From: Myxococcota bacterium
GTDB lineage: Bacteria; Myxococcota_A; SURF-8
DNA length: 64,000 bases
Assembly: GCA_963674735.2 (NCBI GenBank)
Contig: CAXXQS010000001.1
Location: 1,792,001 to 1,856,000 of the forward strand
Direction: 5' to 3'
The notes under the pieces were generated by a model. It had not been told where the DNA came from. It made no database searches and was given only the letters and a program-made list of their open reading frames with translations. This document shows positions 37,378 through 56,112 of the stretch, piece by piece. The translations under genes and the position numbers were made by a program. Positions within the stretch are counted from its first letter, which is position 1. Each line of letters starts with the position of its first letter.

Positions 37378-37385
37378 ATCTTGCC

Positions 37386-40043
37386 ATGGCCAAATCGTCT
37401 AAAAAAAGCCTGACACCCGCCTCAGCCACGACACCGATGATGCGTCATTTTCTCGAAATTAAGGCGGATCATCCCGACAGTCTGATTTTCTACCGTTGCG
37501 GCGACTTCTACGAAACCTTCTACGACGACGCGGTTACGGCTGCGCGCGAGTTGGACATTACTCTCACATCCCGCGATAAAAACAGCGAGAACCCCGTGCC
37601 GCTGGCGGGCGTTCCTTACCACGCGGTTCAGGGTTACCTGTCGCGCCTGGTCGACAAAGGTTACAAGGTCGCCATCGTCGAACAAGTGGAAGATCCCAAG
37701 CAGGCCAAAGGGATGGTCAAGCGCGAAGTAGTACGAATCGTAACCCCCGGCCTGGTCATGGATGGTGACAATCTGGCCGCCGACGAAAATAATTTTCTGG
37801 TATCGATTTTCGGACACGAAAAGCGCTTCGGTCTCGCTCTACTCGACATCAGCACCGGCGAATTTCGTTGCACCGAGCTGAACGACGAAGCGGAATTATC
37901 CAATGAAATGGTCAAATTGACCCCACGCGAAATCCTCTTCCCGGATGCTTGGCGCGACTCCGAAGAAATCGCTCGCTGGTTGCCCTGGAACGCCCGGCCC
38001 CTGATCGACTACCGCGCCGATGTGGAATTCGATGCCCGGCGCGCCGAGGAATTGTTGTGCCGCCAGTTCCAGACATCCAACCTGAAGGGTTTCGGAGTTG
38101 ACGGTCTACCGCTCGCCTTGCGTGCAGCCGGTGCACTCATGAGTTACGTACAGGAAACACAGCGCCAACGGGCGGAGCACATAACCGCTCTTACCCCGTA
38201 TTCATCCAAGGAATTCATGGTCCTTGACGAGGCCACCAAAGTTAATCTCGAACTTGAGCGCACCATTCTCGATGGACGTAAGCGAGGATCTTTATTAGGT
38301 ATTCTCGACCGATGCCGAACACCCGTGGGGTCACGCACACTCAAACGCTGGCTCAATTACCCGCTGATGGACGTCGCCCGTATCCGCGAACGTCACAACA
38401 TTGTGGAAGAATTCTTTTTACATGGCACCTTGCGCGCCGAGATTCGGGAACTTCTGGCCCGCGTGGGCGATCTCTCCCGCTTGTCGGGACGCATCACGAT
38501 GGGGCATGGCAACGCCCGCGACCTTGTCACCTTGAAAGAAGCTCTGCAAGCCTGCGCCGAACTGAAGGTTTTCCTCGACCAACAACGTCCCGATCTCTTT
38601 GTCGGCTTTTCTCAGGCCGTAGATCCGCTGCCCGATCTGACCGACCGGCTATGCCGAGCCATCGTAGATGAGCCTCCCGCCACCGTGCGTGAAGGACGTA
38701 TGTTCAAAACGGGTTACCATTCCGACCTGGACAGTTTGATTTTAATGTCGGAGCACGGCAAAGACGAGATTCTGCGGATCGAAGCCAAAGAGAAAAAAGC
38801 TCTTGGTGTGCCGTCACTCAAGGTACGTTACAATCGGGTTTTCGGTTATTATATCGAGCTGACGAAGTCGCATGCCGATAAAGCCCCAGCACATTATGTC
38901 CGTAAACAAACACTTACCAATGCCGAGCGCTACATCACTCAGGAATTAAAAGAGTTCGAGGACCAGGTCCTTAACGCCGAAGACCGCCGCCACGAACTTG
39001 AATACACCTTGTTCGAGGAACTGCGCCGGTTTGTCACCGACCAGACCGCGTCCCTGATGCTGACGGCCGAAACCATCGGCATTCTCGACAGCCTTTCCAC
39101 TCTGGCAGAGGTGGCCGCCCTTAACGATTACGTGCGCCCTAGCATCGACGCCTCGGATGCCATTCACATTGAAGACGGCCGCCATCCGGTTGTCGAAGCC
39201 CTCCAAAAAAACGAAAGCTTCATCCCCAACGACACGCATCTTGATTGCAGCGATCGTCAGTTGTTGCTGATTACCGGTCCCAATATGGCCGGTAAGTCAA
39301 CGGTTATCCGCCAGGTAGCCTTGATTGCCCTGATGTCGCAGATCGGGAGTTTCGTGCCGGCCCGGAAGGCCGATCTGAGTGTTGTCGACCGCATTTTCAC
39401 ACGTGTCGGCGCGGCCGATAACCTAGTGCGCGGCCTCTCGACTTTCATGGTCGAAATGACCGAAACCGCCAACATCCTGCACAATGCCACGTCCAATAGC
39501 CTGATTATCCTTGATGAGATCGGGCGCGGCACGTCCACCTACGATGGGCTTTCCATCGCCTGGGCCGTAGCCGAATATTTGCACGATCACCTGCGCGCCA
39601 AAACCATGTTCGCCACCCATTACCATGAATTGACCGAACTGACTCGCGCCAAACCACGTGTACACAACCTCAACATTTCGGTGCGCGAATGGAAAGACCA
39701 GATCATCTTTTTGCGTAAACTGATAGAAGGTCCAGCCAACCGCAGCTACGGCATCCAGGTCGGACGCCTGGCCGGACTACCCGACCCCGTTATTCAACGA
39801 GCCAAACAGGTCCTGCACATCCTAGAATCGGGCAAGCCTGACCGCCTCTTCGATGACCGTCCGTCTAAAAGAAAACCAGCATCGTCCCCCAACCAACTTT
39901 CGTTATTTTCCGTGCGCGAAGTTGAACGCGATCACCCGATCATCGATGAACTCGATCAACTTTCCCCCGAATCGCTGTCGCCGATCGAAGCTTTGACCAT
40001 TCTTTTCGATTGGAAAAAACGCCGCAGTAACGAGAATCCGTGA
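37386..40043 (+). CDS. mutS: DNA mismatch repair protein MutS
   Basis: TPMM, GDFYE, TGPNMAGKST, STFMVEM, DEIGRGT, ATHYHEL. Confidence 0.98.
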   Translation: MAKSSKKSLTPASATTPMMRHFLEIKADHPDSLIFYRCGDFYETFYDDAVTAARELDITLTSRDKNSENPVPLAGVPYHAVQGYLSRLVDKGYKVAIVEQVEDPKQAKGMVKREVVRIVTPGLVMDGDNLAADENNFLVSIFGHEKRFGLALLDISTGEFRCTELNDEAELSNEMVKLTPREILFPDAWRDSEEIARWLPWNARPLIDYRADVEFDARRAEELLCRQFQTSNLKGFGVDGLPLALRAAGALMSYVQETQRQRAEHITALTPYSSKEFMVLDEATKVNLELERTILDGRKRGSLLGILDRCRTPVGSRTLKRWLNYPLMDVARIRERHNIVEEFFLHGTLRAEIRELLARVGDLSRLSGRITMGHGNARDLVTLKEALQACAELKVFLDQQRPDLFVGFSQAVDPLPDLTDRLCRAIVDEPPATVREGRMFKTGYHSDLDSLILMSEHGKDEILRIEAKEKKALGVPSLKVRYNRVFGYYIELTKSHADKAPAHYVRKQTLTNAERYITQELKEFEDQVLNAEDRRHELEYTLFEELRRFVTDQTASLMLTAETIGILDSLSTLAEVAALNDYVRPSIDASDAIHIEDGRHPVVEALQKNESFIPNDTHLDCSDRQLLLITGPNMAGKSTVIRQVALIALMSQIGSFVPARKADLSVVDRIFTRVGAADNLVRGLSTFMVEMTETANILHNATSNSLIILDEIGRGTSTYDGLSIAWAVAEYLHDHLRAKTMFATHYHELTELTRAKPRVHNLNISVREWKDQIIFLRKLIEGPANRSYGIQVGRLAGLPDPVIQRAKQVLHILESGKPDRLFDDRPSKRKPASSPNQLSLFSVREVERDHPIIDELDQLSPESLSPIEALTILFDWKKRRSNENP

Positions 40044-40120: not shown

Positions 40121-40858
40121 ATGCCTAGCACCGAGTCGAACAAAAACCTGACCAACGCTCTTGAAGACTACTTGGAGACGATCCAACATTTCGTCGATGA
40201 AAAAGGATTTGCCCGCATTCGGGATATTTGCGATGCAAGAGGTGTCAAATCCGGATCTGCCTCTCCTGCCGTAAAACGCTTATCGGAAATGGGATTGATC
40301 CATCATCAGCAGGGAGAATTCATAACCCTGACGAGCAAGGGCGAAGCGATCGCGCGTCGTACACAAGTGCGTCACGATTTACTGGTAAGGTTCTTTAACG
40401 GTTTCCTTCGCGTCGATGCCAGCCAGGCAGAAAAAGATGCCTGTGCCATTGAGCACCATCTCTCGGATGCAAGCATGGATCAGTTGACCCGACTGTTCGA
40501 ATTTTTACAAAATTGCCCCGAGGGCCAAAATGATTTTCTGAAGAATTTCCACAATTGCCCGATCGTCAGTACGGATAATAAAGCTTGTGACCATCACTGC
40601 AAAACTCATAACCGAAAAAAAGGAGCGGCTATTTCAAAAGGGCGGCTGCTTAGCGATCTTGAGATTGGTGAACAAAGCTCGATTACCCGCGTCAATGCTC
40701 CGAACGAAATCCGTCATAAACTTCTCAATCTCGGGTTCATTCCCGGGGCGAAAGTCGAATTGGACCGGATCGTACAAGAGAAAGGAATTAGACTTCTTTT
40801 GAATAATCACCCCGTCCACTTGACTATGCAGGAAGCTCGGTCCGTAAAAGTACAATAA
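40121..40858 (+). CDS. DtxR/MntR family metal-dependent regulator with C-terminal FeoA domain
   Basis: LEDYLETI, AEKDACAIEHHLS; C-terminal KLLNLGFIPG FeoA/SH3 domain. Confidence 0.92.
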   Translation: MPSTESNKNLTNALEDYLETIQHFVDEKGFARIRDICDARGVKSGSASPAVKRLSEMGLIHHQQGEFITLTSKGEAIARRTQVRHDLLVRFFNGFLRVDASQAEKDACAIEHHLSDASMDQLTRLFEFLQNCPEGQNDFLKNFHNCPIVSTDNKACDHHCKTHNRKKGAAISKGRLLSDLEIGEQSSITRVNAPNEIRHKLLNLGFIPGAKVELDRIVQEKGIRLLLNNHPVHLTMQEARSVKVQ

Positions 40859-40863
40859 TTTTT

Positions 40864-40890
40864 TTGACCTATGTGCTAGTTGCGACTAGC
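40864..40890 (+). promoter_or_regulatory. Candidate -35 and DtxR-family operator for the feo operon
   Basis: TTGACC followed by inverted repeat GCTAGT-tgcg-ACTAGC. Confidence 0.4.
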
Positions 40891-40918
40891 GCTGTTAGGC
40901 GCGATTGCAGGAAGGAAA

Positions 40919-41515
40919 ATGAACAAAAAAACGAAACATCATTTTGCCCCGCACCTTGGTGGAGGTGGCTATCCGCTAACCATGGCCGCTCCAGGAGAAT
41001 CGGTTGTGGTTCTTTGTTGCAACACCCGCGATCCGGACCTGAACCGACATCTGAGTGATATGGGAATCAGCCCTAGTGGAGTTCTTCAGATACTGTGCAA
41101 TGAAAATGGCCGTTTGACCGTTTTAACCGGTGATGCACGTATCGGAATCGATTCGGAGTTAGCAAGAAAAATCAATGTATCTCCCGCATGCGGCAGGCAC
41201 CATTGCCATCAGCATGAAGGTCACTGCCACAGACATCCATGTGCCTGCGGCGCAAAAAACGAAAGGAGTAAATCGGTGAAAGTTTCAATCAGTGCCGATG
41301 CCCTGATGAAAGGTCAGGAAGGAATCGTCAAACAAGTGAAAGGCGATCGAGCCGTCAATCGCCGGTTGCGAGACATGGGGTTGACGCCGGGGTCCCGCAT
41401 CCGCTGTGAAGGGAAAGCGCCTCTGGGCGATCCGATCGAGTTGGCGATTATGGGATACAAATTGACGCTTCGTAAAAGCGAAGCGGTCGGTGTTCTGGTG
41501 GAGGTGGAGGAATGA
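40919..41515 (+). CDS. feoA: Tandem double-FeoA protein with His/Cys-rich linker
   Basis: Two FeoA motifs (HLSDMGI; RLRDMGLTPG..APLGDP..LRKSEA). Confidence 0.88.
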   Translation: MNKKTKHHFAPHLGGGGYPLTMAAPGESVVVLCCNTRDPDLNRHLSDMGISPSGVLQILCNENGRLTVLTGDARIGIDSELARKINVSPACGRHHCHQHEGHCHRHPCACGAKNERSKSVKVSISADALMKGQEGIVKQVKGDRAVNRRLRDMGLTPGSRIRCEGKAPLGDPIELAIMGYKLTLRKSEAVGVLVEVEE

Positions 41516-43641
41516 GCAGCTTCACCATCGCCTTGGCAGGCAATCCCAATAGCGGTAAAACGACTATTTTCAATGCGCTGACGGGTGCCCGGCAACACGT
41601 GGGTAACTATCCGGGAGTGACCGTCGAAAAGAAAAGCGGGACGTTTATAGAAAACGGACACCCCATCGAAGTGGTGGACCTTCCCGGAACCTATAGTTTG
41701 ACGGCCTATTCGGAAGAAGAACAAGTGGCCCGACGCTTTGTTCTTGGTGAATCCCCCAACCTCATCGTTGATGTTGCCGACGCGTCCAACCTGGAACGAA
41801 ACCTTTACTTGGCGGTCCAGTTTATGGAAATGGGACAGCCGCTTGTGCTGGTTCTCAACATGCACGACGTCGCCGCAAATAGAGGAATTAAGATCGATCA
41901 TCAACGCCTTTCCTCCTTGTTAGGTGCGCCTGTCGTGCCGACGATCGCCAGCCACGGAAAAGGGCTCAATGTACTGAAATCAACCGTTCTCCACCGCGCG
42001 GAACGGGATAACAGCTTAAATTCGACAAAGCTTTCATACGGGGGCGATATCGATGCGGCACTCGATGAATTGGAGCCTCTTCTTGCAAACGATTCGTTTT
42101 GCCGGGAACGCTTCAATCCTCGTTGGCTGGCGCTTAAACTGATCGAACATGATGAAGAATTGACTGAGCTGGCACAGAACAATCTAAAACAGAGCGAAGA
42201 TGTTTTCGCTATCGTAAAACGTGTCACGATACACATCGAAAGCACCTTGGATGACTTACCCGAGAATGTGGTATCGGATTACCGTTACGGCTTTATCACC
42301 TCTGTCATCAAAGAATGCGTCACGCGTCCGGAAGTGGATCGTCGTACATTATCGGACAAACTCGATAAAGTACTAACTCACCGCATGCTGGGTCCGATAT
42401 TCCTGCTGGCGGTCATATGGGCCTTGTACGAGTTTGTCTTTACGGCCAGTGAAACTCCCGTTGGTTGGGTTGAAACTATCTTTGGCTGGCTCGGCTCTGC
42501 CGTTGAAACCGGCATGGCCGACGGTTTGCTCAAATCCATGATCGTATCGGGCGTCATCGACGGCGTCGGCGGTGTTTTGGGCTTTGTCCCCTTGATCATG
42601 TTCATGTTTTTCTTTATCGCCATCCTGGAGGACTCGGGGTACATGGCGCGAGTTGCGTTCATCCTTGACCGTGTGCTGCGTAGTTTCGGCATGCACGGCA
42701 ATTCGATGGTGGCCTTGATCGTATCCGGCGGCATCGCGGGCGGTTGCGCGGTACCCGGCGTGATGGCGACACGGACTCTGCGCGACCCGAAAGAACGACT
42801 GGCTACGATCCTCGTGGCGCCTTTTATGAACTGTGGAGCGAAGTTACCTGTGTTTGCCTTGTTGATCGCGGCTTTCTTCTCGGCACATCAGGGCACGATG
42901 ATGTTTTTGATCACGCTGCTGTCCTGGGCTTTCGCCTTGATCGCGGCTCGAATTTTGCGTGGCACGATCATCAAAGGAGAGTCTTCGCCGTTCATTATGG
43001 AGCTTCCTCCCTATCGGATACCGACCTTGCGAGGACTGCTGATCCACATGTGGGAACGAACCTGGCAATACATCAAAAAAGCGGGAACGATTATTCTGGC
43101 CGTCTCCATTCTGCTTTGGGCCTTGATGACATTCCCATCCCTGCCGGAAGAAAAAGCCACTGCAATTGAAGCCGAGACGACCCAAGGGGTTGCGGAAGAT
43201 GTCGTCGCCAACAAGCTGGCCGAAGCAGAGTTGGCACATTCCGTCGCCGGACGTGTCGGGAGAGCTTTGGAAGCGATTACCCAACCCTTGATGGGTTTCG
43301 ATTGGCGTACCAATATCGCCCTTGTCGGCGGATTTGCGGCAAAGGAAGTCGTCGTTGCAACGCTCGGTACCGCCTATTCCCTGGGAGAGATAGATCCCGA
43401 AGAGTCCGAATCACTTTCGGAAAGGCTGGCGAACGATCCTGGCTGGACACCTTTGTCCGCCTTCGCCCTCATCCTGTTTATTATGCTGTATGCCCCTTGT
43501 TTCGTGACGGTAGCAGTGATCAAACGCGAAACCCAGAGCTGGAAGTGGGCGGGTTTTTCAATGCTGTACACAACCGCAGCGGCGTTTGTCATTGCGACAG
43601 CCGTGTACCAGGTCGGCTCATTTTTGGGGATCGGAGTTTAA
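41512..43641 (+). CDS. feoB: Ferrous iron transporter FeoB
   Basis: GNPNSGKT, VGNYPGVTVE, DLPGTYSL, LEDSGYMAR, FMNCGAKLP, MELPPY. Confidence 0.97.
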   Translation: MSSFTIALAGNPNSGKTTIFNALTGARQHVGNYPGVTVEKKSGTFIENGHPIEVVDLPGTYSLTAYSEEEQVARRFVLGESPNLIVDVADASNLERNLYLAVQFMEMGQPLVLVLNMHDVAANRGIKIDHQRLSSLLGAPVVPTIASHGKGLNVLKSTVLHRAERDNSLNSTKLSYGGDIDAALDELEPLLANDSFCRERFNPRWLALKLIEHDEELTELAQNNLKQSEDVFAIVKRVTIHIESTLDDLPENVVSDYRYGFITSVIKECVTRPEVDRRTLSDKLDKVLTHRMLGPIFLLAVIWALYEFVFTASETPVGWVETIFGWLGSAVETGMADGLLKSMIVSGVIDGVGGVLGFVPLIMFMFFFIAILEDSGYMARVAFILDRVLRSFGMHGNSMVALIVSGGIAGGCAVPGVMATRTLRDPKERLATILVAPFMNCGAKLPVFALLIAAFFSAHQGTMMFLITLLSWAFALIAARILRGTIIKGESSPFIMELPPYRIPTLRGLLIHMWERTWQYIKKAGTIILAVSILLWALMTFPSLPEEKATAIEAETTQGVAEDVVANKLAEAELAHSVAGRVGRALEAITQPLMGFDWRTNIALVGGFAAKEVVVATLGTAYSLGEIDPEESESLSERLANDPGWTPLSAFALILFIMLYAPCFVTVAVIKRETQSWKWAGFSMLYTTAAAFVIATAVYQVGSFLGIGV

Positions 43642-45007: not shown

Positions 45008-45039
45008 CTCGGCAACAGTCATCGAACAACGTGAATGTC

Positions 45040-46332
45040 ATGTCTTACAAGCCCGTTCATCCTCTGCTTGCCTATCTCGCGCCGATCAGGCCCGGTCATC
45101 GCTTTGCTGGACATTTCCGCCTCAACGATATCCAGGGCGAACACGACGCCGTCCTGCAATTGACGGATGAACGTAAAGGAAAAGTTTTCGCCATTCATGT
45201 TCAACCCGCCGACCGCAAGGGTGGAGCATTGATACGTACACCTCGCCTTAAACTGGCCTGGCCCAATCCCTATCCACCTGACCGTGAAACCGAGCGTCTG
45301 GTACGCGTAATCGGCCGGATTCTGGAACAAAACCTCGTTTCGACTTCCGAAGCGGAGTTCCAGGCACTCTTCACACAATCACCGGGTCCATCAGAACTTG
45401 TCCCTGTCCCCGCCGAACAGGTCATGGAGCTCTTGGTAGGATTGGAATGCAGTTCCAATTGCCTTTTTTGCTCTGATCGCCCGGACACTCGTCCCGGTCC
45501 TGAAAAAGCGCACCTCCTCGATGTCTTGCAAAAAGGTTACGAACAGGGGTTTCGCGGACTTGAATTCGGAGGACTGGAACCCACTTCACGTCGGGACTTG
45601 CACGATCTAATCGCAGCGGCTCGCAGTATCGGCTTCAAGAGCATTCAGGTTATCTCCAACGGTGAACGTCTCGCCGACTCCGGCTATCTACGAGAACTTT
45701 TCGATGCCGGATTGAGCATGCTCGTATTGTCGATCCACGCAGCAGACGAAGCCACCGAAACCACGCTCACCCGCTGCCCCGGCCTCTTCGCCAAAAAGCA
45801 GCAAGCGCTTAAAAACCTGCAGGAACTCCTCGGCAGCCGAGCGGCTCAACGTCAAACCGGTCGTTTTTTCCGCAGCAATACCGTCCTTGCTCGACCCAAT
45901 CTTGAGGGACTGCAGACTTTGATCGACTGGCTGGACACCTACGAACCCAGCGCTCTTTTTCTGCATTATCCATGGATCAACGGACAAGCCCAGCGTCACT
46001 TCGCAGAGATCGTCCCAAGCTACGCAGACGTGGAAATAGCACTCGGACCCTTGAAAGCTCGCCTCAACGACGAAAACGGTCGTCTATCGGTATTAAATCT
46101 CCCCCCCTGCATCGGTCGTGCCTTCGCTTCGCGTCAGATTACACACAAAAATATTCTGGTTAACTCGGAGAGCCGGATGAACAGCTCTTCGGATGAAATC
46201 TGCACAGATCCCATGGACAGCAGTCTTACCCACGCCGAACCCTGCCGACGTTGCCAAGCCGTCGTCACCTGCCCAGGTATCTCGCGACATTACCTATCTC
46301 GCTACGGGGCTGACGATCTCCGGCCTTTCTAA
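45040..46332 (+). CDS. Radical SAM protein with N-terminal extension and C-terminal CxxCx5C (HxsC-like) domain
   Basis: CSSNCLFC, GGLEPT, ISNG; C-terminal CRRCQAVVTCPGISRHYLSRYG. Confidence 0.8.
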   Translation: MSYKPVHPLLAYLAPIRPGHRFAGHFRLNDIQGEHDAVLQLTDERKGKVFAIHVQPADRKGGALIRTPRLKLAWPNPYPPDRETERLVRVIGRILEQNLVSTSEAEFQALFTQSPGPSELVPVPAEQVMELLVGLECSSNCLFCSDRPDTRPGPEKAHLLDVLQKGYEQGFRGLEFGGLEPTSRRDLHDLIAAARSIGFKSIQVISNGERLADSGYLRELFDAGLSMLVLSIHAADEATETTLTRCPGLFAKKQQALKNLQELLGSRAAQRQTGRFFRSNTVLARPNLEGLQTLIDWLDTYEPSALFLHYPWINGQAQRHFAEIVPSYADVEIALGPLKARLNDENGRLSVLNLPPCIGRAFASRQITHKNILVNSESRMNSSSDEICTDPMDSSLTHAEPCRRCQAVVTCPGISRHYLSRYGADDLRPF

Positions 46333-46379
46333 ACTCGATTGAGTGTTAATATTTCAGCTGACACAGGAGGAATTTAGGC

Positions 46380-46419
46380 AAAAAAAAATGGCGAGAGTTT
46401 GGGGGAGGCCTCTCGCCAT
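46380..46419 (-). terminator. Rho-independent terminator of the minus-strand ncRNA
   Basis: RNA AUGGCGAGAG-GCCUCCCCCAAA-CUCUCGCCAU followed by a U run (A9 at 46380-46388 on the + strand). Confidence 0.9.
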
Positions 46420-46487
46420 ATCCGTTACCCCGATACTGCAGGTAACGAAAGTGCCGGTTCGAGCTAGGGGGCTTCTCGAACCAACCT

Positions 46488-46593
46488 CGTAGGGTCCAAC
46501 GATACTGCTGTCGAACTCTACGATGCGGAATTCGACGATACTGCTGCCGAATCCCACAATGCGAAACCCAACGATACTGCTGTTGAATTCCAC
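46488..46593. repeat. Three 36-bp tandem hairpin units
   Basis: GATACTGCT cores start at 46501, 46537 and 46573; a fourth GATACTGC is at 46432. Confidence 0.9.
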
Positions 46594-46683
46594 TTGGACA
46601 GTCGCCGGTAGGGGGAACCGGCTAAATCCTTACTGAGGGCAAATGATTCAATGAACAGATCAAATCAGTCGAGCAATTGTTAT

Positions 46684-46699
46684 AGCAAACATGGTGCCA
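46684..46699 (-). promoter_or_regulatory. Sigma-54 (-24/-12) promoter
   Basis: Minus strand TGGCAC-CATGT-TTGCT versus consensus TGGCACG-N4-TTGCW, with exact spacing. Confidence 0.85.
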
Positions 46700-46829
46700 A
46701 CTTTAGAATATTCATCACGTAATCACATGAAAACGAAATTATATCTGTCATATCAGCCATATGTAATTCCTGCAAAAATGGATCTCGACGTTATTCCTTT
46801 TCAACCAACCAACCATCCAAAGCTGGCAC

Positions 46830-46844
46830 GTGCATATTATGCAC
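46830..46844. promoter_or_regulatory. Candidate enhancer (UAS) palindrome
   Basis: GTGCATA-T-TATGCAC about 160 bp upstream of the sigma-54 start site. Confidence 0.5.
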
Positions 46845-46901
46845 TTTCCTCCAGACGCTCTCGCACTCTGCGCAATTATTTCGCTATTCCTCGCTTTTTC
46901 C

Positions 46902-46930
46902 TTGCTCCAACTCTTGAAAACCGCTAATCT
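46902..46930 (+). promoter_or_regulatory. Putative sigma-70 promoter of the response regulator
   Basis: TTGCTC-17 nt-TAATCT. Confidence 0.4.
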
Positions 46931-46965
46931 GATTCAGGTCAGGCACAGATTTCGGAGAATCAATT

Positions 46966-48366
46966 ATGCCCTCTTTGACAAAGAAAAGGGTCCTCGTCAT
47001 CGACGATGAGGCCTTGGCACGTTCCACAATCTCATTCTATTTACAGGATGTTGGCTATGATGTAGTCGAAGCGGCCAGCGCCGAGGAGGGCTTGCGGCTC
47101 ACCCTGGAACATACTCCCCAGGTTGTTGTGTCGGACATTCGTCTGGAAGGTATGTCCGGCATTGAACTACTTGGAAAAATTAACGAAATACATCCCAACA
47201 CCTTGGTTATTTTGATTACCGCCTACGGCACCATCCAGGAGGCGGTTAACGCCATGAATCTGGGGGCTGAAAACTATCTGACAAAACCCGTGAATTTATC
47301 GGAACTTGAACTTATCGTCGACCGCGCAATCGAGAAAAGTAACCTCATTCAAGAAACGCATTATTTACGTCAACAGCTTCGTGCCACCAAGAAATTTGAG
47401 CGTTTGGTGGGTAATCATTCCAACATGCAAGACGTGTTCAAGATCATCGAACAGGTGGCTCCATCGATGGCCAACGTCCTTATCTATGGCGAATCCGGAA
47501 CCGGTAAGGAACTGGTTGGAGAAGCCATTCACCGCCTTTCCAGCCGGGCAGACGGTCCATTCATTAAAGTTAATTGCGCCGTTTTTTCAGAGACTTTGCT
47601 CGAAAGTGAATTGTTCGGCCATGAGAAAGGGGCCTTTACCGGCGCCTACACACGCCGTGAAGGACGCTTCGAAGCCGCAAACGGAGGAACGCTATTTCTA
47701 GACGATGTCAACGTCATGCCCGAAGTCACCCAGGTGAAAATTTTGCGTTTCCTCCAGGAACGCGAACTGGAGCGCGTCGGCGGCACGAAAACCATCAAAG
47801 TTGATGTGCGTGTCATCGCCGCAACCAACCGCCCCCTCAATGAAGAAGTACAACTGGGCAATTTCCGCGAGGATCTCTACTATCGCCTCAACGTCATCCC
47901 CGTGAACCTCCCGCCGCTACGCGAACGTAAATCGGACATCCCACTTTTAGTCGGTCATTTCGTCAAAAAATACGCAGAAAAGAACAACGCTAGCGTCCGT
48001 GATATCGATGACGACGCCTTGGCATTGTGCATGAATTACGATTGGCCGGGCAATGTTCGAGAACTCGAAAATATCATCGAACGAGCCGTTATCATGACAC
48101 GTGGAGAAACGATTCAGCGCAAACATTTCCCGACTCTCGAAAAAGACTCACCCAGTTCGGATGATCACGGCATCATAGTGGGTCGCACAATGGATGAGAT
48201 CGAAAAAGAGGCTGTGTTAAGAACTTTAGCTGCTTTTCAAGGAAGTACTAAAAAAGCGGCTGAGACTCTAAACGTCAGCGTACGAAAAATTCAGTACAAG
48301 TTAAAACAATACCGAAAAGAAGCCATCGCCAGCGGAGAACCGCTGGACGAAATCCTAAAAAAGTGA
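46966..48366 (+). CDS. Sigma-54-dependent response regulator (NtrC/AtoC family; REC-AAA+-HTH)
   Basis: IDDE/SD/TAYG/TKP receiver, GESGTGKE, GAFTGA, FREDLYYRL, WPGNVREL, Fis-type HTH. Confidence 0.96.
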   Translation: MPSLTKKRVLVIDDEALARSTISFYLQDVGYDVVEAASAEEGLRLTLEHTPQVVVSDIRLEGMSGIELLGKINEIHPNTLVILITAYGTIQEAVNAMNLGAENYLTKPVNLSELELIVDRAIEKSNLIQETHYLRQQLRATKKFERLVGNHSNMQDVFKIIEQVAPSMANVLIYGESGTGKELVGEAIHRLSSRADGPFIKVNCAVFSETLLESELFGHEKGAFTGAYTRREGRFEAANGGTLFLDDVNVMPEVTQVKILRFLQERELERVGGTKTIKVDVRVIAATNRPLNEEVQLGNFREDLYYRLNVIPVNLPPLRERKSDIPLLVGHFVKKYAEKNNASVRDIDDDALALCMNYDWPGNVRELENIIERAVIMTRGETIQRKHFPTLEKDSPSSDDHGIIVGRTMDEIEKEAVLRTLAAFQGSTKKAAETLNVSVRKIQYKLKQYRKEAIASGEPLDEILKK

Positions 48367-48462
48367 GACAATACCCATTCCCTATCGGAATTCCTATTGC
48401 GAAGGTCGGTCTTCGCTTCATACAACCGGGTTGAAGTTCCCGGATGCCGTCGGAGCAACGCA

Positions 48463-50604
48463 ATGAAAGCTAAATCAACGTTTGTCAGCGTTTTATTGGT
48501 CTCGCTGATTCTTCTGATTTCTGCCTGTGGCGGAGACGACTCTTTTTCTCCGGATCCTGATGACTCCGATGGCGATCAAAACGGAAACACCGAGACACCC
48601 GATGAAGACGAAATTTCTCCGGATGGTGACGACGTCACCCCAGACGGCGATGCAGACGATACGGGAGAAGAGGGGGAAGCCCCCCCCGAACCCGGCCCGA
48701 TCGATATCGATGAAGTAGCCGGATTGATGCATGCATTTGATTTTACAGATGATTCCTATTTGTTTTCAGCCCCTTTCCCAAACGATTTCTATATCGGGGA
48801 GGATGGTCTTGTCGATCTACCCGGTTTCCCCAACCCGAAGAACAGTTCGATGGCCAGTGACTTCATCGCAGCGGCCGAAGACCTTCTGGACGGCTTTGGC
48901 GTCAACACGCCCTCCTACTGGGTTTTCGAAGCCCCCCTCGATCTCACTTCGCTTCCCGCCGATCCAGCCGATACCCTGAGTTGGGATTCTTCTTTGCTGT
49001 TGATCAATATCGACCCCGCTTCCCCGCGTTACGGCAACCTCAACCCACTGGAATGGCATTGGAATCCTGAAGCCAATGTATACGAGGTGGCCAACATGCT
49101 GGCCGTCGCGCCCTACGATGGCTTTCCCCTTGACCCTCTGACAACTTACGCCATGGTTCTAACCGACAGTCTAACGGACGTTGATGGCAATCCGCTTGGC
49201 CGCCCCAAGCTTCTGGCTGATTTACTCTCGGGACGCGAAGACGGAGCCCTGGCCGATGCCTACAAACCGCTGGCCAACTGGCTCGGTCTCGACACCACTC
49301 CCCTCGTCCCGGAACGGGTGCGAGCGGCCACCGTCTTCACCACCCTGGATACCATCGGCGAGGTGAAAGCCATCCGCGATTATCTGGTTGATGAATATCC
49401 CAATGGAGCCGTCTCCGGGGACTTGGTCGATTGCACCTTCGATCATGCCGAAAATGGTTACCTGATCTTCAAGGGGCACTACACCGCCCCGAATTTTCAG
49501 GAAGGTGACGTTCCTTATGCCAGCGAAGGCGGCAACATCTATTTCGGTGAAAACGGCGACCCCATCGTGCAGATGACCGAAACCCTGCGTTTCGCCGTTA
49601 CCATCCCCATGAACCTCGACGTCCCAGCCGCCGGTTGGCCGATCGCCATGATCTCCCATGGTACGGGCGGGCGCTACAATTCCTACATTCGCGGTGGAGG
49701 CCGCTCCCGCTCGGTTCTCCTCACGGAAGCCGGACTCGCAACCATCGGAATCGACCAGCCGCTACATGGCGACCGTGGCAACGAAGCCACCAACGTCGAG
49801 CTGCATACCTTCAACTTTTTCAACCCCGAATCGGGCCGCAGTGTGTTCCGGCAGTCTGCCATCGATACGGTATCACTCACCCGACTCATCGTGGCAGGTG
49901 TTTTAAGGCTCGATAAATCGGTTTGCGACAGTTGGCCGACGGAAGCCGTCTATACCGGTCCCGATGAAATCGTTTTCGATCCGGAACTCATCTCTTTCCA
50001 TGGACACAGCCAAGGCGGCATGAGTGGTTCGCTGGCGGCAGCGGTGGAAGACGACGTGCAAGGTTGGGTTCTGTCGGGTGCGGGCGGTCGCCTCGCCATC
50101 ACCGTACTCGAACGCGAAGATCCGGACCTCCTGGGACTCATGACACCGATGATCGGTATCCAGGTCGAAGAAGCTCACAAACACCACCCCATCGTCGGCT
50201 TGCTGCAATGGCTAACCGAAATCACCGATATGATCAACTATGCCCCTTATTGGATCGGCTATCCCCACGACGGACGTCCCAAACACATGATGCTGACCAG
50301 TGGCTTCGTCGACCCTTATACTCCCAAAAACACAGCTTTCGCACTCGCGGTAGCCGGTCGCGTCCCGCTCCTTGAAGAAGTCCATGAAGCGATGCCCGGA
50401 CTGGAATTACGCGGTCTGAGTGCGTTCGCTCGTCCAGCAACACTGAACATCATGGCGCCTAACGGTCAACGCGCTACAGCCGGTTTCTGCCAGTACCCGG
50501 AGGATGGCCATTTTGCCGTGTTCGACAACGATGACGCAGCCTGGCTCTACCAGGAATTTCTGCGCTCCCTTTCTTACGCACAGGCACCCGTACTGGGCTA
50601 CTGA
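48463..50604 (+). CDS. Lipoprotein alpha/beta hydrolase (lipase-like) with N-terminal Ig-like region
   Basis: ISAC lipobox, DGD acidic linker, PFPND, HGTGG, DQPLHGDR, GHSQG nucleophile, GHF. Confidence 0.8.
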   Translation: MKAKSTFVSVLLVSLILLISACGGDDSFSPDPDDSDGDQNGNTETPDEDEISPDGDDVTPDGDADDTGEEGEAPPEPGPIDIDEVAGLMHAFDFTDDSYLFSAPFPNDFYIGEDGLVDLPGFPNPKNSSMASDFIAAAEDLLDGFGVNTPSYWVFEAPLDLTSLPADPADTLSWDSSLLLINIDPASPRYGNLNPLEWHWNPEANVYEVANMLAVAPYDGFPLDPLTTYAMVLTDSLTDVDGNPLGRPKLLADLLSGREDGALADAYKPLANWLGLDTTPLVPERVRAATVFTTLDTIGEVKAIRDYLVDEYPNGAVSGDLVDCTFDHAENGYLIFKGHYTAPNFQEGDVPYASEGGNIYFGENGDPIVQMTETLRFAVTIPMNLDVPAAGWPIAMISHGTGGRYNSYIRGGGRSRSVLLTEAGLATIGIDQPLHGDRGNEATNVELHTFNFFNPESGRSVFRQSAIDTVSLTRLIVAGVLRLDKSVCDSWPTEAVYTGPDEIVFDPELISFHGHSQGGMSGSLAAAVEDDVQGWVLSGAGGRLAITVLEREDPDLLGLMTPMIGIQVEEAHKHHPIVGLLQWLTEITDMINYAPYWIGYPHDGRPKHMMLTSGFVDPYTPKNTAFALAVAGRVPLLEEVHEAMPGLELRGLSAFARPATLNIMAPNGQRATAGFCQYPEDGHFAVFDNDDAAWLYQEFLRSLSYAQAPVLGY

Positions 50605-52489: not shown

Positions 52490-55400
52490 ATGCCATATTT
52501 TGACATGTTGGCCATGTACACTGATTCTGATAGTGAAAAGGGAATCATTGTGTTAAACTTTTACAGTCAATTCTATCATCAACAAACAGACAACATCAGT
52601 AAACGAGCCATGCAAGTCTCGAAATTCTTCAAGCACGATTATATCCGGGAAAAATGGTTCGGCCTGTTGCCAGCCATCTATCTCCTTTTGGGGATCATTG
52701 CAATTATCATCGAGCTGAACCTAACCACCGGCGCTTGTATTAATAGTTTCCGGTTCATAGCCGAAATCACCGCCGTCATCCTCACGGCCCTCCTCTTTTT
52801 TGTTTTTCTTAGAACGCTGAAAAAACAGATACAACACTCAATCTCAGCAGTCGGTGCTGCCAATCAACGATTCACTTCTCTGACAGACAGTTTAAATCTT
52901 CCCGTTATCGAAACGGATACTGCCGGCAACATCCTCACTTCGAACGACAAAGCCCAAGGCTGCCTGTCGCTTTTTAAAAACCCCGAGGAACATCCCTGTA
53001 TTTTCAATCGTTTTTACGGCTCAGATGGAGAAGCGGCACAGGCGTTTTTCATTGACTGTGTCAACAAACAGATCCCAACCTTCACCTACAACCAGTTGAT
53101 CGAGCGATCGGACGGCTTAAAGCGAACCTTTACTTTCACCCACCATCTATGGGTCGACTCATTATCTCGACAAACACGAATACTGATCAGCGCAACGGAC
53201 ATAACGGAATCACTCCAATCCAAAGCGAAACTAGACCTTCTAAACCGCATCGCCGAACAGATCGGCGAAGGTGTGGCCGTGGCTGATTTATCCGGAAAGC
53301 TAATTTTCATCAATGACGCGTGGGCCCATATGCACGGTTATACCGTAACCGAAATGCTGGGACAAAATATCGCGATCAGCCACACAAGCGAACAGATTGA
53401 AACCGATGTCCTTCCGTTCAACGAATTTGTCAACAAGTATGGCTCCCATCGCGGCGAAGTTGGACATGTGCATAGGGATGGAACAACTTTTATTACCGAA
53501 ATGACCACCACCGTCTTACGTGATGACAACGATGAAGCTTTCGGATTGATCGGTATCGCTCAGAATATATCTCAGCGTAAAAAATTGGACGCACTTTTTC
53601 AACACCGTATTCGTGTCGAACGCGCGGTTGCCCGGGTATCTAAAACATTGTCTGTTTACAAAGAAGCGGACATCAATGCCTGCCTGGCCATGCTCGGAGA
53701 AGCAGTTGAGGCTCACCGGGCCTACATTTTCACCTATCACGATGACAATCGAAAATGTAGTAACACTCATGAGTGGTGCAGCCAAGAAACTCAACCGGAA
53801 ATTGAGAATCGACAAAACATCGACATCCACAGGTTGAAGGGGTGGGACGAAGCTCTGCGGCACGATGAAAACATCGTCATCCCATCTGCAAATGAACTTC
53901 CCCAAGACCAAAAAACAATTCTTGCATTAGCAAAGAATCAACCTATCCAATCGCTGTTGATCGTACCCATGTGGTCGGACAAGCGGCTCTATGGATTCCT
54001 TGGCTTCGACGATGTCAAACAGAAGCGTCTCTGGTCTGACGACGACTTGATCTTGTTGCGTACTGCATCCGAAATCCTCATGGCACACTTCGAACAGGTG
54101 GAAGCCGCAAACCAACTACGCAACAATGAAGCCCTTTTCAGAACAGCTTTTCAGCTCATTCCAGATTCGGTCGGCCTGCAACACTTTGATAATGGTCACT
54201 TTGTTCGCATCAACGCCGCGTTCCAAGAAACATTCGGTTATGATCTTGCGGAGGTACTGGGAAAAAGCGATCTCGATATTGGAATATGGGAAAATCATGC
54301 ACAGCGCCGATCGGCGCGACAAATCATTGAAGCCCATGGCGAAATTCGCGAAATGGAAGCCGTATTTATCCGCCGCGATGGTAGCCGCTTCGTGGGCAGC
54401 ATGTCGGCTCGCAGGCTCGACCAACAGGATGGCCGATTCGTCCTTGCCATCATACGCGATATCACCGCAGCCAAAGTTTCCGAGCGTGCCTTGAGACAAT
54501 CGGAAGAAAACTATCGGTCCATTTTCGAAGCAGTTAACGATGCCATTTTCGTCCACGACCTTGAAACCGGCAAAATACTAGATGTGAACCGCAAAATGAT
54601 GGAAATGTATGGCTACAACTATGAAGAGGCTACCGGATTGGTTATGAAGAACGTGTGCGACGATCAAACACCCCATACCGCTGAAAACGCTATGACATGG
54701 ATTAAAAAGGCTGCGGAAGGCGAACCGCAGGTTTTTGAATGGCGTGCCAGGCGTAAAGATGGCTCTCTGTTCTGGACCGAAGTCAGTTTGAAACGCGCGA
54801 TTGTCGCCGGTGAAGGTCGCCTGTTAGCTTCCGTTCGTGACATTAGCGACAGGAAAAAGAACCTTGTAGAAAAAGAAAACCTCGAAATGCAACTCAGGCA
54901 AAAGCAGAAATTGGAATCGATCGGAACCTTGGCAAGCGGAGTTGCTCATGAAATCAACAACCCCATCAATGGAATTATGAACTATGCACAGTTGATTTTC
55001 GATCGTCTTGGCGAATCGCATCCTCTATCCGAATTTTCCCTGGAGATCATCCTCGAATCCGAGCGGATTGCAACAATCGTACGCAATCTACTCGCTTTTT
55101 CGCGTCAGGAGAAAGAGCCACACAACCGTTCCTCTATCCAGGAAATCGTCGATGCGACCTTGACATTGGTTAAAACACTTCTGCGTAAGGATACGATACG
55201 AATCGATGTCGAGTTGCCTTCCGACCTCCCATATGTTTATTGCCGAACCAAACAAATTCAACAGGTGCTAATGAATCTCATCACCAACGCGCGCGATGCC
55301 CTTAACGAAAAGTTTCCCGGACCTCACCAAAACAAGATCATCCGTATCAGCAGTTGTGCAGTCATGAAGCAAGGTCAACAATGGGTGCGCATAACGGCAG

Positions 55401-55606
55401 AAGATAACGGCTCCGGTATTCCACAAGAAGTACTTCCGCGTATCTTCGATCCTTTCTTCACAACCAAGTCACGCGATATCGGGACAGGACTCGGACTTTC
55501 CGTCAGCCATGGAATCATCGCCGAGCACGGCGGGGAATTCACTGTTGACAGTAAAAGGGGCGAATTTACACGGTTTTCATTCGATCTAAAAGCGGCAGAG
55601 AAATAG
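52490..55606 (+). CDS. Membrane-anchored multi-PAS/GAF sensor histidine kinase
   Basis: 2 TM helices, about 4 PAS domains, GAF (NTHEWC..GFLGFD), AHEINNP H-box, NARDA, DNGSG, GTGLGL; start uncertain. Confidence 0.92.
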   Translation: MPYFDMLAMYTDSDSEKGIIVLNFYSQFYHQQTDNISKRAMQVSKFFKHDYIREKWFGLLPAIYLLLGIIAIIIELNLTTGACINSFRFIAEITAVILTALLFFVFLRTLKKQIQHSISAVGAANQRFTSLTDSLNLPVIETDTAGNILTSNDKAQGCLSLFKNPEEHPCIFNRFYGSDGEAAQAFFIDCVNKQIPTFTYNQLIERSDGLKRTFTFTHHLWVDSLSRQTRILISATDITESLQSKAKLDLLNRIAEQIGEGVAVADLSGKLIFINDAWAHMHGYTVTEMLGQNIAISHTSEQIETDVLPFNEFVNKYGSHRGEVGHVHRDGTTFITEMTTTVLRDDNDEAFGLIGIAQNISQRKKLDALFQHRIRVERAVARVSKTLSVYKEADINACLAMLGEAVEAHRAYIFTYHDDNRKCSNTHEWCSQETQPEIENRQNIDIHRLKGWDEALRHDENIVIPSANELPQDQKTILALAKNQPIQSLLIVPMWSDKRLYGFLGFDDVKQKRLWSDDDLILLRTASEILMAHFEQVEAANQLRNNEALFRTAFQLIPDSVGLQHFDNGHFVRINAAFQETFGYDLAEVLGKSDLDIGIWENHAQRRSARQIIEAHGEIREMEAVFIRRDGSRFVGSMSARRLDQQDGRFVLAIIRDITAAKVSERALRQSEENYRSIFEAVNDAIFVHDLETGKILDVNRKMMEMYGYNYEEATGLVMKNVCDDQTPHTAENAMTWIKKAAEGEPQVFEWRARRKDGSLFWTEVSLKRAIVAGEGRLLASVRDISDRKKNLVEKENLEMQLRQKQKLESIGTLASGVAHEINNPINGIMNYAQLIFDRLGESHPLSEFSLEIILESERIATIVRNLLAFSRQEKEPHNRSSIQEIVDATLTLVKTLLRKDTIRIDVELPSDLPYVYCRTKQIQQVLMNLITNARDALNEKFPGPHQNKIIRISSCAVMKQGQQWVRITAEDNGSGIPQEVLPRIFDPFFTTKSRDIGTGLGLSVSHGIIAEHGGEFTVDSKRGEFTRFSFDLKAAEK

Positions 55607-55632: not shown

Positions 55633-56112
55633 TCAGGCAACAAGTAACCCTGCCACTTTTTCCAGAAACTGTTCGTCGTCCTCGTTAAAGGCGCTCACCT
55701 CATCACCATCGACGTCAATCTGCCCCTTCACTTCTCCCGAGGAGGGATCACGGATCAAAACAACGATTTCCGAACGTGTTTTCAGGCTGCAAGCCAGATA
55801 ATTTCCGAGCTCACGCACGTCCTGCACGATTTGGTTTTCGCCGGTTGCAATCGCCGTTCCACAGACCCCCTGACCAATGGCTATACGTGTGTGTTCGGTA
55901 GCTTCACCACGATACGGGCCTAAGACCAGATGATCGCCCTGTAGCCAGTACACGCCAACCCACTTGTAGGAAGGCAGGGAGTCGTAAATAATCGCCACCG
56001 CCATGTCAGCCACAACCGTTGTATCGGTAGTGCGACTCCGTACAGCCTCTATTTTTTTTATAACACGCCCGAAATCACCTTGTGACAATTCCGCCTCCCC
56101 ACCCGTTTTCAA
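55633..56112 (-). CDS. GAF domain protein, free methionine-R-sulfoxide reductase-like
   Basis: WVGVY, LGPY.G, GVCGTA, YLAC..RSEIVV, DVD. Confidence 0.8.
   Translation of the reverse strand: MKTGGEAELSQGDFGRVIKKIEAVRSRTTDTTVVADMAVAIIYDSLPSYKWVGVYWLQGDHLVLGPYRGEATEHTRIAIGQGVCGTAIATGENQIVQDVRELGNYLACSLKTRSEIVVLIRDPSSGEVKGQIDVDGDEVSAFNEDDEQFLEKVAGLLVA

Follow-up and report, generated by a model that had tools for sequence, protein, structure and literature searches.

A putative small RNA with C-rich loops and a multiplied accessory hairpin, divergent from a sigma-54 activator gene, in an uncultured class of Myxococcota

The minus strand between position 46380 and about position 46673 of the window, by which the whole analysed stretch of 64,000 nucleotides is meant, appears to encode a stand-alone, putatively trans-acting small RNA (sRNA) of about 294 nt. 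It is very probable that this is a real RNA gene and that it represents a previously undescribed family. Regarding its function, the best explanation overall, which is put forward tentatively and from sequence evidence, is that of a sigma-54-dependent sRNA in which a core of C-rich loops would act by base pairing and to which an amplified accessory loop module has been added. The elements of the locus, in window coordinates, are the following:

46380..46419, minus strand: intrinsic terminator AUGGCGAGAG-GCCUCCCCCAAA-CUCUCGCCAU followed by U9, whose loop has CCUCC and then more C (RNAfold)
46421..46449, minus strand: fourth GCAGUAUC hairpin, UUCGUUACC-UGCAGUAUC-GGGGUAACG, with a stem unrelated to those of the other three (RNAfold)
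46456..46482, minus strand: hairpin GGUUCGAG-AAGCCCCCUAG-CUCGAACC, with the second C-rich loop (RNAfold and homologue comparison)
46488..46593, minus strand: three tandem hairpins with a period of 36 nt and the loop AGCAGUAUC in each (fold, motif count, tandem-repeat and covariation analysis)
46604..46622, minus strand: hairpin 1, GCCGGU-UCCCCCU-ACCGGC, a C-rich loop and the family-wide core hairpin (RNAfold and homologue comparison)
46631..46656, minus strand: conserved 5' box GUUCAUUGAAUCAUUUGCCCUCAGUA, mostly unpaired, a candidate additional seed (alignment A3)
46684..46699, minus strand: promoter of sigma-54 type, TGGCAC-N5-TTGCT (-24 GG, -12 GC) (exact pattern match and homologue conservation)
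46830..46844, no strand: GTGCATAATATGCAC, a perfect palindrome 145 nt ahead of the promoter, candidate for the proximal activator-binding site (UAS) (palindrome search)
46870..46884, no strand: imperfect palindrome GCGAAATAATTGCGC, a candidate distal UAS (sequence reading; binding presumed)
46966..48366, plus strand: divergent gene of a response regulator of the NtrC family, a sigma-54 activator presumed to act on the sRNA promoter (Pfam)

On the minus strand, an exact sigma-54 -24/-12 motif, TGGCACCATGTTTGCT, is read directly at 46699-46684, and the interval 46380-46699 contains seven hairpins and a terminator made of a hairpin with U9, with hairpins at 46622-46604, 46593-46561, 46558-46524, 46522-46488, 46482-46456 and 46449-46421. 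The promoter, the hairpins and the terminator had all been proposed in a sequence-only reading of this DNA, with which direct inspection agrees; moreover, RNAfold reproduces exactly the hairpins that it listed, with a minimum free energy of -118.5 kcal/mol, a z of -6.37 (0 of 100 shuffles fold equally well) and unpaired spacers of only 1-6 nt between hairpins. The plus strand reaches a z of only -0.76, and 24 of 100 shuffles fold equally well; the structure is therefore strand-specific, as the same reading had argued from the G-U pairs. The terminator was missed by a simple terminator scanner because its 12-nt loop is longer than the 8 nt to which the scanner is limited. The gene downstream is convergent and the terminator of the transcript faces it, so that there is nothing to regulate in cis. 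No second copy of the sRNA is found elsewhere in the genome (G000). The four entries listed for public runs are DNA or of unknown kind, none being recorded as RNA, and the contigs of three runs aligned to the locus show no variant letters.

The divergent gene encodes a protein that combines a receiver, an AAA+ sigma-54 interaction domain and an HTH of the Fis type (Pfam Response_reg, 8.4e-27; Sigma54_activat, 6.2e-71; HTH_8, 3.1e-08); no NCBIfam equivalog is matched at its cut-off. The earlier proposal of a stand-alone structured RNA gene, behind a promoter of sigma-54 type and adjoining a sigma-54 activator, is supported. Orthologues of this regulator are present in all nine other genomes of the class and on the metagenome contig L121 (72.8% identity), with identities of 64-73% except in G007, where the value is 54-59% depending on the tool. 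They adjoin an sRNA homologue in eight of these nine genomes and on L121, the exception being G007. Of the 11 sRNA homologues with upstream flank, 10 (9/10 class genomes plus L121) are arranged divergently to the orthologous regulator gene. The distance from the sRNA promoter to the regulator start is about 266-280 nt, as measured in G000, G006, G008 and G009.

Counting motifs does not in itself single out the promoter, as the window holds two matches to the sigma-54 pattern with at most one mismatch against 1.72 expected, which is chance level. Its support comes from conservation, since an equivalent element is found in all 11 homologues whose sequence includes the 5' end. Palindromes lie upstream of the sRNA promoter in homologues as well, among them related GCGAAA-N3-5-TTTCGC palindromes at -182 to -185 in G002, G005, G006 and G009. 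The genome has one rpoN gene, so that the features by which a sigma-54-dependent gene would be recognised from sequence, namely a GG-N10-GC promoter, rpoN and an enhancer-binding protein with candidate upstream sites, are found together. Control of the sRNA by sigma-54 and its activator is likely, and the divergent NtrC-type regulator would probably act on the promoter via the palindromic sites that precede it by 130-185 nt. On the same strand, about 40 nt upstream (46767-46738), there is also a sigma-70-like site, of a quality expected by chance. As for feedback on the regulator, reading the sequence revealed no complementarity between the sRNA and the regulator leader, and this candidate interaction was rejected.

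Homologues of the sRNA were found in all ten species genomes of the class and on two metagenome contigs, L121 and L118, giving 12 sequences. A BLASTN search of 41 related genomes with the sRNA returned G000 itself and only the terminator of G004; DNA similarity being too weak, the homologues were located through the regulator orthologues. In all six genomes of the same family there is a homologue whose parts follow one another in the same order, and homologues are also seen in the other four genomes of the class, where those of G006, G008 and G009 were identified by visual inspection and that of G007 by a weak match (E 0.0015) to model R1. This model, comprising the promoter, the 5' box and hairpin 1 and built from the six same-family genomes, matches its own six training sequences and, weakly, G007, its scope being too limited to cover the remaining families. 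Of 46 stretches of metagenome contigs with the terminator pattern, 44 are chance matches without U-run, promoter or C-rich loops, and among regulator homologues outside the class (50-54% identical, in 11 genomes), a divergent promoter followed by C-loop hairpins was found in none of the six examined. Sequence comparison thus places the sRNA in an RNA family that, within the search, is confined to one small class of bacteria.

As defined by these comparisons, the core of the family consists of a 5' single-stranded box, at least two hairpins with loops of the CCCCCUA(C) type and a terminator with a C-rich loop. The 5' box, which the sequence-only reading had missed, stands out in alignment A3 of the six same-family genomes as the transcribed block with the highest conservation, and a similar block is found on L121. 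In the same alignment, 6 of the 13 predicted pairs stay paired through changes on both sides. In the 12 homologues the terminator stem takes five different sequences, each of them paired, and the terminator loop always contains four or more C in a row; alignment A5 of the terminators sets stems of unequal length out of register, and pairs were not counted on it. No Rfam family accounts for the RNA, as had been supposed: at the gathering score, Rfam 15 gives no match in the whole window or in nine homologue loci, and with E up to 10 the only match in 46200-47000 is HIV-1_SL4 (E 2.4), which corresponds to the upstream palindrome at 46830..46844 and is spurious.

The C-rich display loops, which had been pointed out in this RNA alone, turn out to be common to the family. 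Runs of at least four C occur 3-6 times per homologue in all 12, located in hairpin loops, and loops of the [U/G]CCCCUAC type recur in G004, G001, G006, G007, G008, G009, L121 and L118. Two or more exposed C-runs, the feature that defines C-rich-loop base-pairing sRNAs as a functional class, are thus present. Several such sRNAs are known to act against Shine-Dalgarno sequences, including RsaE/RoxS from Firmicutes, sX13 from Xanthomonas and the CcsR or 'cuckoo' RNAs from alpha-proteobacteria; in these, several C-runs, in hairpins or unpaired, serve as redundant seeds for G-rich sites in mRNAs, and some are independent of Hfq. Their sequences are unrelated to this sRNA, which has no Rfam match, and we know of no member of the RsaE/RoxS, sX13 or CcsR families under sigma-54 control with a dedicated divergent activator. 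By analogy, the C-rich loops here would be exposed seeds for mRNA regions that are G-rich or contain a Shine-Dalgarno sequence, and pairing may alter translation or stability of the mRNA without Hfq, which was not found in the genome (94% complete). The search for targets returned 56 genome sites for GUAGGGGG, which lies at the ribosome-binding site of five long open reading frames in G000. For the two of these five candidates that were examined, the sequence is absent upstream of the orthologues (0/8 for an RND transporter gene and 0/9 for a pilin-like gene), and UAGGGGG is enriched 5.5-fold at start sites against 5.4-fold for AAGGGGG, that is, without excess. The chances that the C-rich loops act by base pairing are judged to be even.

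The second kind of loop is confined to some lineages. The motif AGCAGTATCG occurs three times in the window, always at this locus, where 0.05 occurrences would be expected (none of 100 shuffles has three), and the loop of the fourth motif hairpin reads UGCAGUAUC. The first three of these hairpins form a tandem array with a 36-nt unit (2.6 copies, 76% matches), the units being identical to each other at 23-28 of 36 positions. Over the 12 homologues, the degenerate form GCNGUAY is found 13 times against 1.27 expected (maximum of 5 in 1000 shuffles), but in only six of them, and it is multiplied only in G000 (four copies) and on L118 (at least five copies, as GCUGUAUC); on L121, a single motif hairpin lies between C-loop hairpins. 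The earlier proposal of a repeated GCAGUAUC loop therefore stands for this RNA and not for the family, and the loop is a lineage-restricted accessory; being absent from 6 of the 12 homologues, the motif cannot be the core function of the family.

The proposal that the stems of these hairpins covary around a constant loop can be upheld. In a set of nine GCWGUAUC hairpins, pairing is kept in 92.1% of cells, compared with 50.3% in shuffles (none of 500 reaches the observed value) and 17-52% in slid controls, and all seven stem pairs have changed on both sides while six loop positions are invariant, counts that refer to paralogous and hence non-independent hairpins. The fourth base of the GCNGUAUC / GCAGUAUC loop, in turn, varies by lineage and is A, U or G. 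Descent combined with tolerance would explain this variation no less well than co-evolution with a partner would. The expansions in G000 and on L118 are apparently independent, as judged solely by the dissimilarity of their stems. The GCNGUAUC hairpins are a lineage-specific addition, presumably for a second partner, in which a single hairpin has given rise to four in G000, where three go back to a recent tandem triplication of 36 nt, and to five or more on L118, so that each transcript would display the same loop more often. A phylum-wide scan for two GCWGTATC motifs 18-36 nt apart gave 59 of 401 genomes, nearly all with short-period tandem or coding repeats, which were discarded, and hairpin-type paired GCWGTATC was seen only in G000. 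The loop motif does not recur as a repeat throughout the genome, and a literature search for it returned only primer-sequence noise.

With respect to what the GCNGUAUC loops bind, neither pairing with an RNA nor binding of a protein is more likely than not, the RNA partner being slightly the likelier of the two. An RNA partner may be contacted by loop-loop or loop-linear pairing, as for NrsZ. The complement of the GCAGUAUC loop is not enriched genome-wide (114 sites against about 161 expected), and no plausible complement of the loop was found near start codons in the genome. This failure to find an RNA target is one of the points in favour of a protein sponge or decoy, in which the GCNGUAUC hairpins, and perhaps the C-rich loops, would titrate a sequence-specific RNA-binding protein whenever the regulator is active, in the manner of CsrB/RsmZ or CrcZ and with a new motif. 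These RNAs are multi-hairpin protein sponges with a repeated short motif, of which CrcZ is sigma-54 dependent. Titration would also account for the identical 9-nt loops on differing stems, with the loop invariant and the stems covarying, for the copy numbers (four here and at least five on L118 against one on L121), which are those expected from selection on dosage, and for the tolerance of variation at loop position 4, as at a base that makes no contribution to protein recognition. The resemblance does not extend to the motifs themselves, since GGA occurs five times in the 320 nt but in none of the eight predicted loops of the G000 RNA, so that CsrA, although present in the genome, is not the partner; there are likewise no AAnAAnAA motifs of the kind found in CrcZ, and no Hfq was found. 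The argument from dosage is further weakened in that the independence of the two expansions is read from the stems. As a whole, this explanation is considered rather unlikely. Its fullest form, slightly less likely again, is a sponge or decoy in Hfq-less Myxococcota, in which a class-wide C-loop core would have been independently loaded with 4-5 or more GCNGUAUC hairpins in at least two lineages, titrating a protein or partner RNA under a dedicated sigma-54 regulator.

The closest architectural analogue of the sRNA is NrsZ from Pseudomonas aeruginosa. According to PMC4253122, NrsZ depends on sigma-54 and NtrC, is transcribed from an intergenic region next to the gene of the regulator, has three conserved stem-loops with one and the same loop, and is cut into modules of about 40 nt. 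The NrsZ loop is presented there as the seed, and the loops of the repeated hairpins as acting by kissing an mRNA leader (PMC4253122). The likeness, which is one of architecture only, comprises repeated stem-loops with one loop, short spacers and a sigma-54 promoter beside an NtrC-type regulator. The two differ in the loop, ACAGGCAG in NrsZ against GCNGUAUC and CCCCCUA here, in the presence here of two loop classes and a conserved 5' box, and in the divergent orientation of the sRNA with respect to its regulator. An NrsZ-like precursor, cut between hairpins into active single-hairpin modules whose yield is raised by the tandem array, would fit the architecture described for that RNA (PMC4253122) and the separation of the hairpins by only 1-6 unpaired nt; yet neither in sequence nor in loop motif is there any relation to NrsZ, with no Rfam match, and processing would be compatible with both the base-pairing and the sponge readings and excludes neither. 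This possibility is regarded as improbable.

That the locus encodes no trans-acting RNA, and is instead a set of DNA palindromes or a repeat element, a cis leader or a small protein gene, is hardly credible: a 79-codon GTG open frame at 46354-46593 and the tandem 36-nt repeats speak for it, but only one strand folds significantly, there is neither a further genome copy nor a genome-wide repeat of the loop motif, the terminator faces a convergent gene with no gene in cis downstream, and from one of the 12 homologues to another the longest frames change in phase, in start codon and in sequence, most of them running off the end, so that they share no conserved reading frame, against the possibility raised beforehand that a peptide might be what is conserved.

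A comparison within the phylum is provided by Pxr from Myxococcus xanthus, which had been cited as an example of an sRNA next to its activator. Pxr is described as a multi-stem-loop sRNA with an essential first loop, a predicted sigma-54 promoter and an upstream enhancer region, located beside the gene of the NtrC-like PxrR (Nla19) and immediately downstream of it (PMC5684412), and as confined to the Cystobacterineae, according to PMC5568312. As compared by description only, the likeness is loose: both are myxobacterial sRNAs with a predicted sigma-54 promoter, an NtrC-like neighbour and several stem-loops, but the sRNA described here is about three times longer and lies upstream of and divergent from the regulator (9/10 class genomes and L121).

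The principle is not new, as sigma-54-dependent sRNAs beside their activators (NrsZ and Pxr) and C-rich seed loops were already known. A further sRNA of this kind is Qrr, beside luxO. To our knowledge, few regulatory RNAs have been described from Myxococcota and none from this uncultured class; Pxr was the only one encountered in the literature searched. The locus represents a compact conserved circuit, made up of a response regulator, upstream palindromes, a putative sigma-54 promoter and an sRNA, and the family illustrates how an sRNA may gain a module, with a fixed-loop hairpin being tandemly multiplied while its stems drift and compensate. If the sponge or decoy reading were true, one transcript would join base-pairing regulation with titration. 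Whatever binds the GCNGUAUC loop would, once identified, either give the RNA a second class of targets or reveal a new RNA-binding protein.

Judged from its sequence, the minus-strand locus at 46380-46699 very likely represents a real sRNA family, undescribed as far as Rfam 15 and the literature searched show. The promoter, hairpins and terminator that the sequence-only reading had placed here are borne out by the minus-strand sequence, and the hairpins and terminator are also recovered by RNAfold.

Elements of the RNA locus (promoter from the sequence read; all others from the sequence read and RNAfold)
46699-46684, minus strand: sigma-54-type promoter TGGCACCATGTTTGCT
46622-46604, minus strand: hairpin with loop UCCCCCU
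46593-46561, 46558-46524 and 46522-46488, minus strand: three hairpins, each with loop AGCAGUAUC
46482-46456, minus strand: hairpin with loop AAGCCCCCUAG
46449-46421, minus strand: fourth GCAGUAUC hairpin, its stem unrelated to the other three
46419-46380, minus strand: terminator hairpin (loop GCCUCCCCCAAA) and then U9

The structure is strand-specific, as had been claimed: the minus-strand fold reaches an MFE of -118.5 kcal/mol (z -6.37, with 0 of 100 shuffles as stable), against an unremarkable plus-strand fold (z -0.76, 24 of 100 shuffles as stable). The three AGCAGUAUC hairpins form a tandem array (36-nt period, 2.6 copies, 76% matches) whose units share 23-28 of 36 positions pairwise, and AGCAGTATCG occurs 3 times in the 64 kb, with 0.05 expected. 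The locus is present as a single copy, and a genome-wide check rules out GCAGTATC as a dispersed repeat. Sigma-54 motifs with at most one mismatch occur at chance frequency within the window, and so does a second such site, TGGAACGGCGATTGCA (55846-55861, minus strand, one mismatch). A simple scanner places a sigma-70-like site, also at chance level, 40 nt upstream of the sigma-54 site, and misses the terminator because its loop exceeds the scanner's length limit.

Beyond the window, a DNA similarity search picks out just one relative's terminator. Class and order comprise an identical set of 10 species genomes, and the NtrC-type regulator divergent from the RNA has an orthologue in all nine others, with 64-73% identity in eight of them and 54-59%, depending on the tool, in G007. 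In 9 of the 10, a sigma-54 element and a hairpin-rich stretch of 128-294 nt ending in a terminator lie upstream of the regulator gene and divergent from it; in G007, a candidate RNA occupies a separate genome position, away from the regulator (E 0.0015 with R1, a model of promoter, 5' box and hairpin 1 from six genomes of the window's family, followed by sequence inspection). Scanning metagenome contigs with the terminator pattern returned 46 stretches, two of them true homologues: L121, which has a divergent regulator (72.8% identity) and a convergent radical-SAM gene, and L118, incomplete on its 5' side. In a sample of 111 genomes of the phylum from outside the class, 11 encode a regulator homologue (50-54% identity), and none of the six such loci inspected carries the RNA. 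Rfam gives no match in nine homologue loci or in the window, the region's sole weak match (HIV-1_SL4, E 2.4, 46850-46869), which adjoins palindrome GTGCATAATATGCAC, being spurious.

The locus is shown to be conserved, strand-specific, structured, single-copy and non-coding, and the RNA, with its conserved sigma-54-type promoter and upstream palindromes, is paired with one regulator orthologue. The promoter element is found in all 11 homologues whose 5' end is available, the promoters are preceded, at a distance of 85-205 nt, by palindromes of the form GCGAAA-N3-5-TTTCGC or TGCA-N-TGCA, and no reading frame is common to the homologues. A largely unpaired 5' box, UCAUUGAAYC-UUUGCCCU, is nearly invariant in the six same-family genomes and L121. 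In hairpin 1 and its outer helix, 6 of 13 predicted pairs keep pairing despite changes on both sides, and the terminator stem pairs in each of its five sequence versions. The C-rich display loops expected from the window are present in every homologue, with 3-6 runs of at least four C in each of the 12, located in hairpin loops including that of the terminator; the loop type [U/G]CCCCUAC turns up repeatedly in different families. In G001, G002, G003 and G005 (L004, L006, L005 and L009), a CAAU(U)-loop hairpin, a third recurrent loop type, occupies the position of the GCAGUAUC hairpin.

As for the second display loop, its repetition on stems that differ and still pair is upheld by covariation, while its occurrence throughout the family is not, GCNGUAY being found in 6 of 12 homologues. 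It occurs 13 times in these 12 sequences, where shuffling predicts 1.27 (at most 5 in any of 1000 shuffles): four copies in the window and one each in L121 and G004 have A as the variable base, one in G001 has G, one in G007 is unpaired and at least five in L118 have U. In L121, a single hairpin, GGAAUCCU-AGCAGUAUC-GGGAUUCC, flanked by two C-loop hairpins, lies in the same place as the window's tandem triple. The nine hairpins aligned comprise the window's four, the single one of L121 and the four that are complete in L118, where a cut fifth was omitted. Their loop does not vary at six positions, each of the seven stem pairs has changed on both sides, and pairing holds in 92.1% of cells, compared with 50.3% in shuffles (none of 500 gets as high) and 17-52% in slid controls, although these covariation counts, which mix paralogues and orthologues, overstate independent events. 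Despite this non-independence, the pattern of a fixed loop on a free yet compensated stem is clear. The L118 stems are far less similar to each other than the window's tandem units, which suggests separate expansions in the two. Elsewhere in the phylum, many short-period arrays contain GCTGTATC or GCAGTATC (G255, for instance at L131; G135; G380/G205); G255 has 46 matches, with an array unit of ~19 nt, CGCTGTATCGCCTTCGGCT, and G380 and G205 carry dispersed 49-nt elements with the octamer on their flanks. By appearance, these arrays and elements look unrelated to the sRNA.

The surroundings of the RNA include the following features.

Features around the RNA locus
37290-40043: MutS, just upstream of an iron-uptake cluster (40121-43641, plus strand)
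40121-40858, plus strand: DtxR/MntR-type repressor with C-terminal FeoA domain
40880-41515, plus strand: 211-aa protein with two FeoA domains
41512-43641, plus strand: FeoB
46830-46844: candidate activator palindrome GTGCATAATATGCAC, upstream of the promoter
46870-46884: imperfect palindrome, upstream of the promoter
46966-48366, plus strand: regulator of 466 aa with receiver, sigma-54-interaction AAA+ and Fis-type HTH domains
48397-50604, plus strand: 735-aa ORF immediately 3' of the regulator, with no Pfam match
52490-55606, plus strand: 1038-aa PAS/GAF histidine kinase

No NCBIfam equivalog reaches its cut-off for the regulator. The 735-aa ORF is matched weakly and in part by the NCBIfam model of VolA/Pla-1 family phospholipases (6.1e-16, far short of the cut-off); homologues with 54-57% identity stand behind the regulator in G001 and G003, and none was found in the examined stretches of other relatives. 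The orphan response regulator may have its cognate sensor in the histidine kinase, which lies 4 kb away past a convergent P5C dehydrogenase gene.

Regarding its function, the sRNA promoter would be activated by the divergent regulator. Because the downstream radical-SAM gene (45031-46332) is convergent, there is no gene that the RNA could control in cis, and it would probably act in trans. Its C-rich loops, in which it presumably resembles the sRNAs RsaE/RoxS, sX13 and CcsR, may base-pair with regions that are G-rich or hold a Shine-Dalgarno sequence; the GCNGUAUC hairpins are a putative amplified accessory display module. CCUCC is present in the terminator loop, and the Shine-Dalgarno sequence preferred by the genome is AAGGAGG. 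GUAGGGGG has 56 sites in the genome, five at the ribosome-binding site of long ORFs; for two candidate target genes, 0 of 8 and 0 of 9 orthologues keep the motif, and the enrichment of UAGGGGG at starts does not exceed that of AAGGGGG. For the second loop, whose partner may be an RNA or a protein, the search gave no convincing complement. The genome encodes one rpoN and one csrA, and Hfq was not found in it (94% complete); since the second loop has neither GGA nor A-rich motifs, a CsrA-type or Hfq/Crc-type role is unlikely.

Among known systems, the closest architecture is that of NrsZ, described in PMC4253122 as an intergenic, RpoN- and NtrC-dependent RNA beside ntrC, with three conserved stem-loops, one identical loop kissing the rhlA leader, and processing into modules. 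Pxr shares the phylum label, a sigma-54 promoter and an adjacent NtrC-like regulator but, according to PMC5684412, lies downstream of pxrR, and it is reportedly restricted to Cystobacterineae (PMC5568312). By sequence, the RNA belongs to none of the families compared, Pxr being set apart by published description rather than by sequence comparison. The family adds no new principle, a sigma-54 sRNA with repeated identical loops beside an NtrC-type regulator being already known in NrsZ; what it offers is a clear regulatory setting and an instructive case of modular expansion.
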